Source: Patescibacteria group bacterium (GTDB lineage: Bacteria > Patescibacteriota > Patescibacteriia > Magasanikbacterales > GWA2-37-8). From it: a DNA stretch of 64,000 nucleotides. Below, in pieces: positions 2,153 to 64,000 of the stretch. The stretch spans positions 704,907-768,906 of the forward strand of contig JBAZUP010000001.1 in NCBI GenBank assembly GCA_041661385.1, read 5' to 3'. The position numbers were made by a program, and so were the translations under genes. Under the pieces are notes generated by a model that was given only the letters and a program-made list of their open reading frames with translations, had not been told where the DNA came from and searched no databases. Within the stretch, counting starts at the first letter, position 1. Each line of letters opens with the position of its first letter.

Positions 2153-2173
2153 ATAAATTACAAATTATATTAA

Positions 2174-2198
2174 GCGCGGCCTCAGCCGCGCTTTTTTT
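2174..2198 (+). terminator. rho-independent terminator after efp
   Basis: gcgcggc-ctca-gccgcgc hairpin followed by a 7-T tract. Confidence 0.7.
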
Positions 2199-2209
2199 AT
2201 TTATTTTTT

Positions 2210-2627
2210 TATCTCGCTATCCCCGCCTGCAACGCTTTGCGTAGCAATGCGGGCAGGGCTCAATCAATTCAATCATTTCTCTATAATACTTATTTCCTTA
2301 GCCCTGCCGGCGGCATCACTTTTCATAACTGAAAAGTAATCAAAAGGTTCTGGGGGCCGGCAGAACTCGTCGCGCGAGCTCCTCAAACAGCTGGCGGCCC
2401 CCAAACCCCCGTTGGGTAATTGGTTGGACAACAACTGGTGACCGAGCCTTTGTGTAACGAGAGCGAAATGGCCGGCGAAATTAGATTTTTTCAATACGAT
2501 TATGCACCTTTGAAAAAATCGTTTTGATTTCGACAAGACATTTGCCGAGCGGAACAACTGCGAGGCAATTTTGGGGACACCCCTTTTGTTGCCAAAAGGG
2601 GTGTGAAAGAGTTTTGAGCGATAGCGA
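2210..2627 (+). ncRNA. candidate structured ncRNA or repeat element, copy A (homologous to 21659-21955)
   Basis: Shares several conserved blocks in the same order with copy B: tatctcgctatc, ctcaatcaatt, ttagccctgc, ttcataactgaaa, aaccaaaggtt, ccccaaacccccgttgggtaattg, gaccgagc, and a distal hairpin gacacc..ttttg.tgccaaaagg..gtgtg. The long stem gggggccggcag/ctggcggccccc (2352-2363 with 2391-2402) covaries with the copy B stem. The 5' end (ctcgctatc) and 3' end (gatagcgag) are complementary, forming a closing helix. The element begins right at the efp terminator T-tract. Confidence 0.45.
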
Positions 2628-2700
2628 AATGTATTAATGAAAAAATATGTTAAATTTGTAATCTAGAAATTTATATTCATCTGTGCTAGTGTAAAATGGT

Positions 2701-9310: not shown

Positions 9311-10062
9311 ATCATCACAAAAATATTATTGAAATAAAAAACCTCTCTTTCGCTTATAGTGGTGAGTTGGTGTTAAAAAATATTTCCTTAAATATTCATG
9401 AGGGTGATTATTTGGGCATCATTGGACCAAATGGCAGCGGCAAATCGACTTTGTTAAAATTAATGCTTGGCTTGCTTAAACCCTCGGCGGGTGAGGTTAA
9501 CTTGTTTGGAAAGCCGGTATCAGAATTTAAAGATTGGTATAAGCTTGGGTATGTTTCGCAAAAGGCGGTAAATTTTGATCCTTTATTTCCGGTAACAGTT
9601 TGGGAGGTGGTCGCCATGGGCCGTCTTGGTCGGCGTGGTCTAGGAAAAAATCTAAGCGATGTGGATGATAAGGCAATTGATAAAGCACTTGTGGAGGTTG
9701 GCATGACTGAATTTCGTGATCGTTTAATTGGCGATTTATCTGGCGGACAACAACAACGGGTTTTTATCGCTCGGGCGCTCGCGGCAGAACCAGCGGTAAT
9801 ATTTTTAGATGAACCGACAACCGGAATTGATGTTGAAACTCAAGAACAGTTTTATTCATTGCTTACGAAATTAAACCGGGAGCGCGACCTCACACTGGTG
9901 CTTATTTCGCACGATATTGATGTCATTGCTCACGAAGCAACCGAGCTCGCCTGTATTAACCAAACGCTTGTTTACCATGGCGAACCCAAGGAATTTGTAA
10001 AAGCAGATTATCTGGAAATGCTTTATGGAAAAAACATTCGTCAAATTTTACATGGTCATTAA
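9301..10062 (+). CDS. znuC: metal ABC transporter ATP-binding protein
   Basis: Walker A GPNGSGKST, signature LSGGQQQRVFIARAL, and Walker B FLDEPTTGID. Confidence 0.85.
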   Translation: MPVNHHKNIIEIKNLSFAYSGELVLKNISLNIHEGDYLGIIGPNGSGKSTLLKLMLGLLKPSAGEVNLFGKPVSEFKDWYKLGYVSQKAVNFDPLFPVTVWEVVAMGRLGRRGLGKNLSDVDDKAIDKALVEVGMTEFRDRLIGDLSGGQQQRVFIARALAAEPAVIFLDEPTTGIDVETQEQFYSLLTKLNRERDLTLVLISHDIDVIAHEATELACINQTLVYHGEPKEFVKADYLEMLYGKNIRQILHGH

Positions 10063-21620: not shown

Positions 21621-21635
21621 AAATGAATTTAAAAA

Positions 21636-21659
21636 CCGCCTGAGAGGGCGGTTTTTTTA
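21636..21659 (+). terminator. rho-independent terminator after the hydrogenase large subunit
   Basis: aaaccgcc-tgagag-ggcggttttttt. Confidence 0.7.
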
Positions 21660-21955
21660 TCTCGCTATCGCTCAATCAATTAATTCATTTACTATATTTT
21701 CATTTTCTTTAGCCCTGCGCGGGCAGCGGATACTTTCATAACTGAAAGTAACCAAAGGTTTTGGGGAGATCGTCGATATAACCACTCGTTCGCGAGAACT
21801 CGGGATATCGACTTCCCCAAACCCCCGTTGGGGTAATTGTTTGGCCAACAAATCGTAGACCGAGCGCAAGTGAGCCGACAGGGGAGGCGAACTTCTAGCT
21901 CGGCAGTTTTTGACACCTTTTTGCTGCCAAAAAGGTGTGCCAGCCCGGCGAGGGC
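21659..21955 (+). ncRNA. candidate structured ncRNA or repeat element, copy B (homologous to 2210-2627)
   Basis: Same ordered conserved blocks as copy A. Stem ggggag..gtcgatat/atatcgac.ttcccc (21763-21779 with 21802-21817) covaries with copy A, and includes a plus-strand G.U pair. The distal hairpin gacaccttttt-gctgcc-aaaaaggtgtg covaries with copy A's cccc/gggg. Starts exactly at the upstream terminator T-tract. Confidence 0.45.
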
Positions 21956-21961
21956 AAATCT

Positions 21962-22327
21962 TTATTTTAAATATTTTTTTAGAAAATTCATTGCTTCAGT
22001 TTCAAGTATATTTGGCGGCAGTCCGTAAATTTTAATATCTTTTAGTTTGCCGATTTTTTGCAACCAGCGTAAATTCGCGTAGGCATCAAAATCGTGCATG
22101 GTGACATTGGGCGCTCGTTTGAAAGTTAACAAACTATTAAATATCATCGGCGACTTGATCCCAACCACCGTATCGATAATATATAAATTTTCCGGGACTT
22201 CCCATTCTTCGTTTGGATCAACGGTGATAAAATCAAAATCTTTAAAATGATTTTTAAGTTCGGTAATTATTTTTAGCGGCACTGAATCCATTTTTAAATC
22301 CGGATTGCCAAATACGAATACCTTCAT
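21962..22327 (-). CDS. hydrogenase maturation endopeptidase (HycI/HoxW-like)
   Basis: 121 aa; VFVFGNPDLKMDSVP / IIDTVVG / TMHDFD...IKIYGLPPNI resemble the HycI pattern (GVGN..GDDG.G, IVDA, TH.M, IQP). Confidence 0.55.
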   Translation of the reverse strand: MKVFVFGNPDLKMDSVPLKIITELKNHFKDFDFITVDPNEEWEVPENLYIIDTVVGIKSPMIFNSLLTFKRAPNVTMHDFDAYANLRWLQKIGKLKDIKIYGLPPNILETEAMNFLKKYLK

Positions 22328-23907: not shown

Positions 23908-23958
23908 GAGGAGTGTCGCGATGAACAAAATTTATTTTGTTCAGCATGACCGACGAGC

Positions 23959-24067
23959 GGCTTCATATATCTCGCGATATATGATTCCGCGTCTCAATCA
24001 ATTTTTCATCTTTTCATTTCCGACGTAGGGCTTCATATATCTCGCGATATATGATTGCCCGCGTCTC
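23959..24067. repeat. two tandem copies (70-bp period) of a 38-bp repeat with an imperfect palindromic core upstream of tRNA-Gly(TCC)
   Basis: ggcttcatatatctcgcgatatatgatt(c/g)cc(c)gcgtctc at 23959-23997 and 24029-24067; core ATATAT-CTCGCG-ATATAT. Confidence 0.6.
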
Positions 24068-43300: not shown

Positions 43301-43330
43301 AGTTTGACTAGTATACCATAAAAATTATCA

Positions 43331-43430
43331 AATCCCAATGACCAATTACCAATAAAAACCGTAATTTCCAATGCCTCATTTTAAAATAGTTTGGGCATTG
43401 AAAATTGGGTATTGGGGTTTAAAAAATTCC
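43331..43430. repeat. CCAAT-rich repeat motifs in inverted arrangement (family shared with 1513-1545)
   Basis: cccaatgaccaattaccaata (43337-43357) and, on the opposite strand, ccccaatacccaattttcaatgcccaa (43399-43425). The latter matches cccaatacccaaaatccaatgaccaa at 1513-1538 (about 23 of 26 nt). Confidence 0.5.
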
Positions 43431-43827
43431 TATCATTAGGAATTTTTGTATTCTTTCCCTGCTACACTGCGAGAAGAGTTGGCTGTCCTAATACGCAAAT
43501 AGAATCTTGAAAACGTTACCTTAACGTATATAAAATAGTTAAAGGCAATAGAGAGGTGTTTTTTTGAAAAAATTTGGATGTGACGGCAACGCTTTCGCAG
43601 TTGAGCAGAGAAAAAATCATTTTTATCTACTACATTTTAGAAGTGAATAATATTACTGTCAACTGTGTATAAGTCGGTCATAATTATTATTTCGGCCGCG
43701 ATGCCAATATTGATAAACGAAGGCCTGTGGATAACATTTATTCAATATAATTGTTATTAGTCCGGATTTGCCTAGTTTTAGCCATAATTAATTAAATTCT
43801 TGACAAGCTTAAGAAGTCGTATATTGC

Positions 43828-43856
43828 TTGACAATAAGCCAAAATAAAGGTAAAAT
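43828..43856 (+). promoter_or_regulatory. strong sigma70-like promoter upstream of rpoBC
   Basis: TTGACA-17 nt-TAAAAT; an overlapping weaker TTGACA-14-TATATT sits at 43800-43825. About 245-nt leader. Confidence 0.55.
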
Positions 43857-44052
43857 GCGGTAAGCTTTTTAAAAATAATTTCGCGGTAGACGAATTTTGG
43901 CTAACATTAGCCTAAATTGTTTACTACGATAAATTCATTTGGTTCGTCACGAAAGGCGGACTGAATGCAAGGTAACCAAAACTTCATGTCCAAGTTGTCG
44001 TCAACCTTGCTCATTTGGCTGAAAATACAGTAAATCTAGGTAGAAATCCGTT

Positions 44053-44070
44053 GCCCACCGGGCTTTTTTT
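44053..44070 (+). promoter_or_regulatory. weak terminator-like hairpin plus T7 in the rpoB leader, possible attenuator
   Basis: gccc-acc-gggc followed by ttttttt, 31 nt before the rpoB ATG. Confidence 0.3.
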
Positions 44071-44101
44071 CGTTATTAATAACCTTTTTTAATAATTTTA
44101 C

Positions 44102-59565: not shown

Positions 59566-59737
59566 GTGTCGTTGTTGAATCGATTGATTTTGAATGAAAA
59601 AGGCTTAAATAAGCGAATTTTATAGTTCATTAAAACTTAATTGTTACCGAAAATGTGAGTGGCAAAAAGTGGCTAATATTGGCTGTTTTTTGCCGCCCAT
59701 AAGGACGGTACAACCAAAAAACAAAGAGGTTCACGAA

Positions 59738-60972
59738 ATGACCACCGGAAACATCGGAACTCCCGCCCTCAAGCTGGTGACCACGTCTTCGGAGGTCAAG
59801 CCCTCCGACGAGCAGCTCTTCGCAATCGCCGAGGAAGAGCTGGGAAGCAAGCCCGACCCCGAGATTCTCGCTCAGCCTGGCGTCCGCGTCATGATGATCG
59901 AGATCTGGATGGAGCGGCAGGCCGAGCTCGAGGAGCAGAAGCGCGCCGCCGACAAGCTCGAGGCCGACCAGAAGGAGAAGGAGCGTCAGCGCGTGCTCTC
60001 CGAGCAGGCGAACAAGCTCCGCGAGCGCTCGAACAAGCGCTTCAAGCCCGGCGCCCCCAAGGGCCCGGTCGTCTTCCTCTCGAATGAGGACATCCAGAAG
60101 GCCGTGCAGAACACGGTTCTCGAGGAGGCGAAGAAGTCGCGTCCGGACCTCCTGCCCGACTGGGTCAGGGAGAAGGATGATGTGGCCGCCATCCGCGGCT
60201 ACCTCTGCGGTGAGCGGCGCAACATCATGGAGTACATGCAGGCAAACCCCGCCGAGATGAAGTTCGTCACCTGGGCCACCAAGGCCATCGCCGACATCCA
60301 GGCCGAAATCGTCTTCGTGACGAAGCTCGGCTTCCGTGCCTTCAACAAGGCCGACCTCACCAAGGAGGGGCATTACTGCCCGACGCCGAAGTACCAGCAG
60401 TATATCCTGCCGAGGCTGAAGGCGAGCAGCTTCTATCAGAAGCTGACGAGCCAGGTCGGCGGCACCAACACCGACTCCGCCAAGTCGGTGGAGAAGGAGG
60501 TGCCGGTCGACCACATCGCCGCTGCGAGGAAGCGGACCGAACAGCTCCTCGCGGAGGAGAAGATCCGCCTGGACATCGGAGGTCGTCTGGTCAAAGCCGA
60601 CTGCGACGAGCAGTCGGTGGTGAGCCGGGCCGACCGGATCATGAAGAAGTTCCAGGGCACCGCCGTGGAGCGTCTCACCCAGGCCGCGGTTGGTCAGGGT
60701 GTGCTCGCGAAGACGAGCTCGGATCCGCAGCTGTGCGAGCAGGCGATGCAGAGCGCGGCTCTGTACTCGAAGGCGGCCGATATCGGCACCGACGAGTTCG
60801 CGGCGCTCATCGACGAGCGCATCGCGAACGCCCACTCCGCGGCGGACAAGCCGTACGCCGTGGTGGAGCGGCCCCTCTCTCCACCAACCAGCAGAAGAAG
60901 CAGTCCGAGGCTGCGCGCAGGGCTCGGAACGCGAAGAAGAGCGGTGAGAAGAAGAACAAGAAGAAGCAGTAG
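59738..60972 (+). CDS. high-GC horizontally acquired gene, hypothetical protein with a coiled-coil and charged N-terminus and a Lys-rich C-terminus; apparent -1 frameshift near 60868-60880
   Basis: About 62% GC with GC3 near 90%, against a roughly 38% GC host. SD AAGAGG sits 7 nt before the ATG. Frame 2 (59738 onward) holds the G/C-ending codon bias until the C-run at 60872-60875. From there the bias continues in the neighbouring frame, which ends NQQKKQSEAARRARNAKKSGEKKNKKKQ* at 60972. The in-frame read-through to 61054 uses atypical AGA/AGT codons. The 475-aa antisense ORF (59630-61057) is a GC-composition artefact. Confidence 0.55.
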
Positions 60973-61012
60973 AGTTAGCGACCAACAGGTCGCAAAACTC
61001 TCGCAACAACCA

Positions 61013-61049
61013 GACAGCCAAGGCAATCCCTTGGCTGTCTTTCGTTTTT
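61013..61049 (+). terminator. rho-independent terminator after the GC-rich gene
   Basis: gacagccaagg-caatc-ccttggctgtc followed by tttcgttttt. Confidence 0.7.
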
Positions 61050-61050
61050 G

Positions 61051-61079
61051 TTGACAAATAAAAGATAATCTCATAAAAT
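61051..61079 (+). promoter_or_regulatory. sigma70-like promoter for the ileS leader
   Basis: TTGACA-17 nt-TAAAAT; about 205-nt leader before the ileS ATG. Confidence 0.55.
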
Positions 61080-61292: not shown

Positions 61293-64000
61293 ATGTACAA
61301 TGCAAATCAGGAAGAACAAAAAATCTTAGAGTTTTGGGAAAAGGACAAAACTTTTGAAAAATCCGTAACTGAACGTCCGGAAAAAAAGCGTTATGTTTTT
61401 TATGATGGTCCGCCGTTTGCAACTGGCCTTCCGCACTATGGTCATATTGTGGCGTCACTCATGAAAGATGTAGTGCCAAGATTTTGGACCATGCGTGGTT
61501 TTAGAGTCGAAAGAAAATGGGGTTGGGATTGTCACGGCCTTCCGGTTGAGAATATTATTGAAAAAGATTTGAACCTAGCGAGTAAGAAAGACATTGTAAA
61601 TTTTGGAATTGCAAATTTTAATGAAGCTTGCCGCTCGACTGTTTTGAAATATGCTGAAGAATGGAAAAAAACAATCCGCCGCATGGGTCGGTGGGTTGAT
61701 ATGGAAAACGATTACCGCACCATGGACAAAGATTATATGGAAAGTGTCTGGTGGGTATTTCGCCAACTTTGGGATAAAGAATTAATTTATAAAGGGCACA
61801 AACCCATGCACATTTGTCCGCGTTGTGTTACTCCGCTTTCAAATTTTGAAGTGACGCAGGGTTATAAAGATATTAAAGATCTTTCCGCGGTGGCAAAGTT
61901 TAAAGTTTTGAAAAGTGAACTGTCAGAAAAATTAAAAATTCCGGCCGGTACTTCGATTTTGGCTTGGACCACTACCCCTTGGACATTGCCCGGTAATGTT
62001 TTGCTCGCGGCAAATGCAGATGTTGATTATGATCTCATAAAAGTGGCGCCGTCGGTTGATGGCGAAGAAGTGGCCGGCGAAGCTAGGTATGAAGCGATGG
62101 ATAATTATATTATTGCTCGCGATCGGATTAAAGAAGTGTTCAAGGAAAAAGGTTATTTACGTGAAGCCAGCTTTAGAGGCAGTGATCTTGTGGGTTTAAC
62201 TTACGAACCACTTTTCCCGTATTTTAAAGATACGCCCAATGCTTTTCGGGTTGTCACGGCGGAGTTTGTTTCTACCGCCGAAGGAACCGGTATTGTGCAT
62301 ATTGCTCCAGCTTATGGTGAGGACGATTTTGGAGTAGGAAAACGAGAAAATATTCCTTTGGTTCAGCATGTAACGATGGAAGGAAGGTTTGTCGCAGCGG
62401 TTGGTGAATTTGCGGGCCTCGAAGTAAAACCGATTGATGATGTAATGCGCACCGATATTGAAATGATCAAATGGCTCGCGGCGAATGACAAACTTTTTAG
62501 CAAACAAAAAATTGAACATAGTTACCCACATTGTTGGCGTTGTGATACCCCGCTTTTAAATTATGCGGCAACCAGTTGGTTTGTGCGGGTTAGCGAAATG
62601 AAGGATCAGCTCTTAAAAAATAACGACGCCATAAACTGGATACCAGACCACATCAAAGACGGTCGTTTCGGAAAATGGCTCGAAGGCGCGAGAGATTGGG
62701 CGATTTCACGGAGCCGTTTTTGGGGAACGCCGCTTCCGGTATGGGAAGCCGATGATGGCGATGTGATTTGTGTCGGAAGCGTCGCGGAACTCGAAGAATT
62801 AACCGGAAAGAAAGTCACAGATTTACATATACATAAAATTAGTGATTTGGTTATAACAAAAAATGGTAAAAAATATCGACCGATTAATGAAGTTTTAGAT
62901 TGTTGGTTTGAAAGCGGCAGCATGCCTTATGGAGAAATGCATTATCCGTTTGAGAACAAGAAAAAATTTGAAGAAGCTTTCCCGGCTGAGTTTATTGCCG
63001 AAGGGCAAGACCAGACCAGAGGTTGGTTTTATACCCTGCATATTCTTGCGGCAGCCTTGACCAGCGGTCGGAATCCGGCGATTAGTAAAAAGATTTTGCA
63101 TTCGCTATCTTTTACTAATAATGGAACCCCGGCTTTCAAAAATGTCATTGTAAACGGCATTGTTCTCGCTGAAGATGGAAAAAAGATGAGCAAAAGACTT
63201 AAAAATTATCCGGATCCAGAAGTTGTCATTCAAAAATATGGAGCAGACGCGATGCGTTATTATTTAGTGTCGTCGCCGGTAATGGAAGCGGAATCGCTGA
63301 ATTTTTCTGAAGCCGGAATGCGTGAAATGTATAATAGATTAATTAATACTTGGTACAATGTTCTCGAATTTTATCAGATGTTTTCGGATACGAAACACGG
63401 AGATGCCGCGAAAAGTAAAAATATTTTGGACCGTTGGATTTTGGTAAAACTTCAGAAATTGGTAAATGAAGTAACATTTGCGATGGAAAATTATAAACTT
63501 GCCGACGCGAGCAGACCGATTGTAGAATTCATTACCGAACTTTCGCAATGGTATGTTCGTCGTTCCAGGGATCGTTTTAAGGGTGACAATGTTGAAGATA
63601 AGGCGTTCGCGCTTGGCACGCTACGGGAAGTTTTGTTAGTTTTATCAAAGGTGTCCGCCCCATTTACGCCGTTTATTTCGGAAAAAGTCTATCGCGAGCT
63701 CACCAATAATATTGGCAGCGTACATCTGGAAAAATGGCCAGACACGACTAGAAAAGTTGATGAGAAAGTAATTGATGAAATGAAAGAAATTCGCAAAATT
63801 GTCGAGATGGGTTTGTCGCTGCGCGCTGAATCCGGAATAAAAGTTCGACAAGTACTTAGTGAATTTTCAGTCAGCGGTTATAAGCTCGATGATGGAGCAA
63901 GCGGAATTATCGCGGATGAATTAAATGTCAATAAAGTTATGGCCGGCAATGTCGCTGATCCGCGCTGGATAACCAAGGAAGACGGTAAATTAAAAGTTGC
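61293..64000 (+). CDS. ileS: isoleucine--tRNA ligase (3' end beyond the window)
   Basis: MYNANQEEQKILEFWEKDKTFEKS...YVFYDGPPFATGLPHYGHI (HIGH motif), WDCHGLPVE, and IleRS editing and catalytic domain order. Frame 3, open to the window end. Confidence 0.9.
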   Translation, partial: MYNANQEEQKILEFWEKDKTFEKSVTERPEKKRYVFYDGPPFATGLPHYGHIVASLMKDVVPRFWTMRGFRVERKWGWDCHGLPVENIIEKDLNLASKKDIVNFGIANFNEACRSTVLKYAEEWKKTIRRMGRWVDMENDYRTMDKDYMESVWWVFRQLWDKELIYKGHKPMHICPRCVTPLSNFEVTQGYKDIKDLSAVAKFKVLKSELSEKLKIPAGTSILAWTTTPWTLPGNVLLAANADVDYDLIKVAPSVDGEEVAGEARYEAMDNYIIARDRIKEVFKEKGYLREASFRGSDLVGLTYEPLFPYFKDTPNAFRVVTAEFVSTAEGTGIVHIAPAYGEDDFGVGKRENIPLVQHVTMEGRFVAAVGEFAGLEVKPIDDVMRTDIEMIKWLAANDKLFSKQKIEHSYPHCWRCDTPLLNYAATSWFVRVSEMKDQLLKNNDAINWIPDHIKDGRFGKWLEGARDWAISRSRFWGTPLPVWEADDGDVICVGSVAELEELTGKKVTDLHIHKISDLVITKNGKKYRPINEVLDCWFESGSMPYGEMHYPFENKKKFEEAFPAEFIAEGQDQTRGWFYTLHILAAALTSGRNPAISKKILHSLSFTNNGTPAFKNVIVNGIVLAEDGKKMSKRLKNYPDPEVVIQKYGADAMRYYLVSSPVMEAESLNFSEAGMREMYNRLINTWYNVLEFYQMFSDTKHGDAAKSKNILDRWILVKLQKLVNEVTFAMENYKLADASRPIVEFITELSQWYVRRSRDRFKGDNVEDKAFALGTLREVLLVLSKVSAPFTPFISEKVYRELTNNIGSVHLEKWPDTTRKVDEKVIDEMKEIRKIVEMGLSLRAESGIKVRQVLSEFSVSGYKLDDGASGIIADELNVNKVMAGNVADPRWITKEDGKLKV

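Follow-up and report, generated by a model that had tools for sequence, protein, structure and literature searches.

Copy B, a 300-nt sequence between the convergent genes for a NiFe-hydrogenase large subunit and a 121-aa protein, is probably a member of a lineage-specific, non-coding, non-autonomous family of MITE-like mobile repeats of 300-520 nt. Full-length copies of this repeat carry an approximately 16-nt sequence, TCTCGCTATCGCTCAA, which recurs inverted at the other end, with a chain of local hairpins between the two. At least four copies are present in one genome. Because copy B is inserted just after a transcription terminator, we read it as an ordinary miniature mobile element and not as a new RNA gene. 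Coordinates are those of the window, by which we mean the whole 64-kb stretch of DNA that was analyzed, and the features discussed below are collected in Table 1.

Copy B and its insertion site

The closest relatives of the hydrogenase large subunit in the window (P0003, P0004, and P0006, at 78-80% protein identity) are encoded in three related genomes, and in 3/3 of these the gene for the large subunit is followed, convergently, by the 121-aa gene and a DUF6390 gene. These genomes (L036/37/38, L039/40, and L042, representing three related species) have the same convergent gene pair and provide the empty site. The distance from the stop codon of the large-subunit gene to that of the 121-aa gene is 341 nt in the window versus 25-34 nt in the relatives, where the gap amounts to one bidirectional terminator. 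The hairpin and T-tract of the host terminator listed in Table 1 are also present at the empty site of L036, L038, L039, and L042. An earlier note, made from the letters of the window, had the element start at the terminator T-tract; the adjacency stands, but the terminator itself lies outside the element, as it is kept at the empty sites and belongs to the host.

The empty site of L042 reads GGTTTTTTATTTTAAAT, where the window has GGTTTTTTTAT, the 300-nt insert and TTTATTTTAAAT. Over a longer stretch, L042 reads GGCCGGTTTTTTATTTTAAATATTTG, and the window runs through GGGCGGTTTTTTTAT into the insert (CTCGC to GCAAATC, 300 nt) and out into TTTATTTTAAATATTTT. The pentamer TTTAT occurs once in L042 and in L036, where it carries the other-strand stop codon of the 121-aa gene; in the window it stands at both edges of the insert, and the stop codon is supplied by the right-hand one. 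Given TTTAT on both flanks and a single TTTAT at the empty sites of L036 and L042, copy B is, by comparison of these sequences, an insertion relative to the related species, and the TTTAT pattern has the signature of insertion with a short target duplication. Alternatively, TTT (3 bp) may have been duplicated, with TAT being part of the element. In the 5-bp version, duplication of TTTAT would have moved the stop codon of the 121-aa gene 300 nt away from the terminator that both genes share. Clear direct repeats are found at copy B alone, a matching right-hand repeat being absent at copies A and C.

The 121-aa gene (window 21962-22327, minus strand) gave no match in Pfam, and the label of maturation protease that the earlier note had attached to it is tentative. 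In the relatives, this gene is invariably paired with the DUF6390 gene beside the hydrogenase.

Table 1. Positions in the window of copies A and B of the repeat, their parts and their flanks
Feature	Positions	Strand	Remarks
Copy B of the repeat	21661-21960	+	300 nt; chain of hairpin modules (or 21658-21960 with TAT included)
Host bidirectional intrinsic terminator of the NiFe-hydrogenase large-subunit gene	21631-21658		From terminator scan; outside the repeat
Left TTTAT, candidate target-site duplication	21656-21660	+	Single TTTAT at the equivalent position in L036 and L042
Left terminal repeat TCTCGCTATCGCTCAA of copy B	21660-21675	+	Inverted at the right end of full-length copies
Short hairpin ACTTTCA-TAAC-TGAAAGT	21732-21749	+	One extra T:A pair in copy A
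Central long hairpin	21757-21823	+	Base GGTTyTGGGG / CCCCAAACC conserved; distal part swappable
Hairpin CGTTGGG paired with GACCGAGC	21826-21865	+	G:T/G:U wobbles on the + strand only
B-type hairpin CCGAGC...GCTCGG	21858-21904	+	Stands in for the longer right-hand module of A and C
Terminal hairpin GACACCTTTTTG-CTGC-CAAAAAGGTGT	21912-21938	+	Homologous hairpins in A (2576-2604) and C
3' tail GCCAGCCCGGCGAGGGCAAATC	21939-21960	+	Can pair with 21712-21724; no right terminal inverted repeat
Right TTTAT	21961-21965	+	Holds the minus-strand TAA stop (21962-21964) of the 121-aa gene
Copy A of the repeat	2213-2630	+	About 420 nt; 37-nt hairpin insert (2222-2258) within the left repeat
Right terminal inverted repeat of copy A	2614-2629		16 nt, 1 mismatch to inverted TCTCGCTATCGCTCAA

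Copies, modules, and distribution of the repeat

Copies A and B are homologous by nhmmer (E = 6e-19 to 2e-19), with a mean column identity of 72% in a MAFFT alignment, and there are exactly two occurrences of the 18-mer CCCCAAACCCCCGTTGGG in the 64-kb window versus an expectation of 0.07. All the blocks that the earlier note had listed for the two copies were found in both, in the same order. A search with the minus-strand ORF of copy B returned one protein match, P0001, and the contig that encodes it (L027/L028) carries copy C, a 517-nt sequence on the opposite strand, ∼10 kb beyond the end of the window and directly downstream of the gene for ribosomal protein L1. L027 begins with 270 nt that match window 63731-64000 exactly, which places copy C in the same genome. 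Copy D is known from one ORF, P0123, which was recovered by a profile search of 1.84 billion representative proteins and is encoded outside the 84 kb read. The contig of P0123 measures 778,751 nt, which is also the length of the longest contig with the hydrogenase of the window, from a Patescibacteria group bacterium MAG (NCBI). The readable copies span 300-517 nt. Short-read assemblies from independent samples break inside copy A (L035 ends at window 2240 and an ENA contig starts at 2270) and inside copy B (L163/L164 end near 21760 and L001/L002 start at 21914), which implies further near-identical copies.

In all three readable copies (A, B, and C), the left end directly abuts a TTTAT at an intrinsic-terminator T-tract, and the copy is oriented like the upstream gene, which encodes EF-P at copy A, the hydrogenase large subunit at copy B, and L1 at copy C; three readable copies are too few for a secure boundary rule. 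At its right end, copy C has a diverged inverted repeat of about 12 nt, AGCGATAACGAGA, with TCTCGYTATCGC in common. In copy D, the peptide SRYRSK is the exact translation of the 16-mer TCTCGCTATCGCTCAA plus AA, consistent with a terminal repeat. Copy B lacks the right terminal inverted repeat, and the right-hand third of A and C is missing from it.

The copies differ by whole modules. A 37-nt hairpin insert at the left end is common to A and C (94%) and missing from B, and the long right-hand module is likewise common to A and C (85%), with a short one in its place in B. Copy C has an insert of about 70 nt in the loop of the short hairpin. Copy D pairs the terminal region of B with the right-hand module of A and C, and there the 3' tail module is followed by the terminal repeat. 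These patterns of presence and exchange indicate that the copies are mosaics. The central module is 99% identical between B and C and has a different distal half in A, so that the occurrence there of the same hairpin with a different sequence reflects a module swap and is not independent covariation. Paired changes keep the stem intact in the short hairpin, where A has one extra T:A pair, and in the terminal hairpin, where A has CC/GG, B has T/A and C shows a G:T wobble. The left hairpin insert and the terminal hairpin were not found on their own elsewhere in the window.

Outside this genome, an exact scan of the GTDB representative genomes with an 18-mer gave 23 matches, all of them chance. 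Two exact patterns searched in JGI metagenomes gave 0 and then 6 matches, the single real one being the contig of copy C itself; four exact patterns in IMG/VR returned nothing real, a blastn search of plasmids and phages gave no match, and 64 kb from three related species contained no copy. The repeat appears to be lineage-specific, restricted to one Patescibacteria (CPR) genome among those searched.

Several features of the neighboring DNA were observed in passing. Copy A lies at a synteny break: in L039 (2573-2613) EF-P is followed after 41 nt by a convergent CYTH gene, and window 2153-2700 has EF-P, then the repeat, then a sigma-factor/efflux block. Just to the left of copy A (window 2192-2212), the T-tract plus TTTAT stands in tandem as TTTTTTTAT TTA TTTTTTTAT, which may be the footprint of an earlier insertion or excision, or of slippage. 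The sequence CTCAATCAATT...TTTTCATTTCC at window 23993-24030 is similar to the AT-rich module at the left of the repeat and holds the one exact CTCAATCAATT that the window has outside the repeat. L039 has a diverged counterpart, TTCAATCGC...TTTTTCATTTCCG, at the orthologous position, which points to an old host sequence at 23993-24030.

Folding and a possible RNA role

The predicted folding energy of copy B is -107.6 kcal/mol for the plus strand versus -110.7 kcal/mol for the minus strand (z = -4.6 and -6.1), and that of copy A is -159.3 versus -156.9 kcal/mol. Folded as ssDNA, copy B has a z score of -5.5. The folds are thus much more stable than those of shuffled sequences. That the two strands fold equally well, and ssDNA also, is what palindromic DNA gives. 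Taken module by module, two favor the plus strand, owing to G:U pairs, and two the minus strand, with no consistent difference. At the Rfam gathering threshold, three tRNAs were the only matches in the whole window and no family was detected at the repeat; with the limit relaxed to an E value of 10 for copies A and B, or 1 for copy C, there was again no match, and nothing came near threshold. The earlier note had proposed a mobile or independently maintained functional element, described as structured-RNA-like. Repetition in unrelated contexts and insertion, the latter seen from the empty sites, are upheld; the RNA label in the form in which it was given is not supported, in view of the equal folding of both strands, the lack of an Rfam family and the differing transcript contexts.

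We nevertheless weighed whether the copies could be a family of functional structured RNAs, either small RNA genes or cis-acting UTR elements, which was duplicated and retained for an RNA role such as transcript stabilization, insulation between convergent neighbors, or regulation of the sigma-factor gene downstream of copy A. This we regard as doubtful, though it has several observations on its side. Folding is strong (z of -4.6 to -6.6 for copies A and B) and hairpins are preserved through paired changes. Several G:U pairs are formed on the plus strand alone, in the 21826-21865 hairpin and in the right-hand module, for which the plus and minus energies are -14.1 versus -5.0 and -68.5 versus -55.4 in copy A. 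Copy A also contains a perfect TATAAT (2282-2287), and non-coding DNA is unusual in a genome where the median spacer is 10 nt. Against these stand the matching energies of the two strands over the whole element and the Rfam result, as well as a scan of copy B that found no promoter-like site. Transcript context varies by locus: transcription would reach copy B only from the minus-strand 121-aa gene, as its 3' tail, and copies A and C sit between co-directional genes. The best conserved block has a 9-nt deletion in copy C, and whole modules come and go. The differing transcript context, the turnover of modules and the deletion in copy C together disfavor one defined RNA product. RNAalifold analysis of three cores gave a positive, unfavorable covariation term (+3.2), in an alignment that is broken by module indels. 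The repeat is also absent from species whose neighboring proteins are 78-80% identical, and is therefore no long-conserved RNA.

Mechanism, coding potential, and comparison with known elements

On the reading that we prefer, a MITE-like repeat, the element would insert into the T-rich TTTAT that directly follows an intrinsic terminator, oriented like the T-tract, and would be moved in trans by a transposase or recombinase that is encoded elsewhere or has since been lost. Gain, loss and exchange of entire modules would account for the differences among copies. Copy B, with no right terminal repeat, would either be a derivative that can no longer move or have arisen in a one-ended or site-specific event. 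Pfam analysis of 40 proteins of the window identified no transposase, Y1 transposase or TnpB, and neither the window nor L027 contains an autonomous element that shares the termini of the repeat.

Other observations also sit uneasily with the MITE reading. The right junction of copy B resembles an original insertion junction despite the missing right repeat, and the paired changes in the hairpins are not needed by a plain cut-and-paste element; the latter could reflect selection on RNA or ssDNA structure, or templated correction within palindromes. In place of a passive MITE, the repeat could be a structure-dependent element that specifically recognizes intrinsic terminators, with the conserved hairpins acting as RNA or ssDNA, whether by transposase-independent or one-ended insertion or as co-opted terminator-proximal regulatory RNAs, in a genome with hardly any other spare DNA. 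We consider such an element unlikely.

Rather unlikely, too, is a palindrome-associated element moved as ssDNA by an IS200/IS605-type (HUH/Y1) transposase, which would insert 3' of TTTAT with no true duplication and use the hairpins as recognition structures. TTTAT abuts the left end in 3/3 copies with strict orientation to the site, the repeat is rich in hairpins and folds well as ssDNA, and the right end of copy B would on this account itself finish in TTTAT, which would explain how copy B does without a right inverted repeat. However, terminal inverted repeats, absent from that family, are present in copies A and C, and neither a Y1 transposase nor TnpB is encoded in the window. The copies also occur in both orientations within 84 kb of uniformly positive GC skew, contrary to the lagging-strand bias of such elements, an argument that is weak with three copies.

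A small protein gene family, made up of the minus-strand ORFs or, on the plus strand, of a short hydrophobic peptide resembling type I toxins, is very improbable and has largely been refuted already. In its favor, the minus-strand ORFs of copies A, B, and C keep one frame across PNGGLG...SVMK, and copy A has a hydrophobic 30-aa ORF on the plus strand (2247-2339). Yet the minus-strand ORFs (94 aa in A, 74 aa in B, and 125 aa in C, the last by JGI gene call) differ among copies in start, end and length, and the two of copy B (21672-21869 and 21692-21916) lie in different, overlapping frames, as the earlier note had observed. The stretch where A departs from B and C is a DNA palindrome in both versions. 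A profile of the three ORFs, searched against 5.8 billion proteins and 1.84 billion representatives, recovered only ORFs over other copies. This is the conservation check that the earlier note had suggested, and its argument against a coding function is sustained; as far as these sequences go, there is no conserved protein gene in the repeat. A further profile match among the representatives, P0122, was set aside as an unrelated low-complexity tandem-repeat protein. The type I toxin idea was rejected because the frame of the 30-aa peptide has no ATG, GTG, or TTG start in copy B; the C-terminus of the peptide also changes frame in copy A.

Class C group II introns insert right after intrinsic terminators in sense orientation. 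Descent from such an intron, as an ORF-less derivative, agrees with the position and orientation of 3/3 copies and with the size of copy A (about 420 nt, close to a minimal IIC ribozyme), but fails the defining ribozyme tests and is scarcely credible: there is no Rfam group II match at E values up to 10 (A and B) or 1 (C) and no other ribozyme signature, the 5' end is CTCGC and not GUGYG, there is no domain V-like hairpin, copy B has only 300 nt, and terminal inverted repeats and flanking TTTAT direct repeats are foreign to introns.

Bacterial MITEs (e.g. Correia/NEMIS, RUP, and Nezha) have been reviewed (PMC3184786). Like them, the repeat is small, non-coding and intergenic, occurs in several copies per genome and in one lineage only, and combines terminal inverted repeats (A and C) and a short flanking direct repeat (B) with long stem-loops on either strand. 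Unlike them, it has an interior of chained local hairpins in place of one long left-right palindrome, one copy without the terminal repeat, strict placement after a T-tract, and no parent insertion sequence that we could find. The closest described analogues, likened by behavior and not by homology, are the bcr1-bcr18 repeats of the Bacillus cereus group, which are 100-400 bp long, lineage-specific and of predicted secondary structure, have no transposase of their own, and show mobility in association with a TTTAT motif that is possibly duplicated on insertion (PMC6542083, PMC6199540). The two differ in copy number, with tens to more than 100 copies per genome for bcr1 and at least four known for the present repeat. 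The bcr repeats belong to a different phylum, so that no relationship in sequence is expected, and the terminator-adjacent placement is a feature of the present repeat that is not taken from those papers.

The BOX elements of Streptococcus pneumoniae and the enterobacterial BIME/REP mosaics are modular, lie at the 3' ends of genes and form stable hairpins; REP units measure 20-40 nt and are linked to RAYT genes. The repeat resembles both in having modules that are present, absent or repeated between copies, in its location at gene 3' ends, and in its stable hairpins, but has no sequence similarity to either, and no RAYT gene is encoded in the window.

Genome context

Patescibacteria/CPR genomes are very small and tightly packed. 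The repeat sits in a 0.78-Mb genome that is itself compact, with a median intergenic gap of 10 nt, and as a multi-copy repeat it would show that selfish DNA is, or was until recently, still active in genomes as reduced as this one. A full-text literature search for MITEs together with CPR returned incidental mention only, and mobile repeats of CPR are little described. The repeat breaks up short-read assemblies, an effect visible in at least three data sets, and it can lengthen the 3' or 5' untranslated regions of its neighbors, namely the 121-aa gene by the hydrogenase and the sigma-factor gene. Beyond these consequences, it is an ordinary kind of object.

Several other non-coding or unusual stretches of this genome were recorded. 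Window 23945-24061, upstream of an operon for an MBL-fold (Apyc1-like) protein and an ECF sigma factor, consists of two tandem ∼70-nt units with a perfect hairpin/palindrome, TCATATATC-TCGC-GATATATGA, between CGG and CCG. The motif is kept at the orthologous place in L036 (∼16640), L038 (∼7115 and ∼7170), and L039 (∼18950) and may be an operator or a small cis-RNA. To the right of copy C, L027 ∼9780-10030 (minus orientation) is poor in ORFs and has a TTGACA-like box with a strong terminator, ctcccgccattggcgggtttttt, ∼200 nt further on; this stretch, possibly a small RNA gene, gave no Rfam match at E values up to 1. Window 59630-61057 has a GC content of 0.48 versus a window mean of 0.42, with long ORFs of 475 and 461 aa that overlap on opposite strands; the one on the minus strand has no Pfam match. 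The largest non-coding gap in the window, at 43301-44101 upstream of rpoB, measures 801 nt and has no ORF of at least 40 aa; a 35-nt stretch at 43389-43423 recurs in inverted orientation at 1509-1543, ahead of the EF-P gene.
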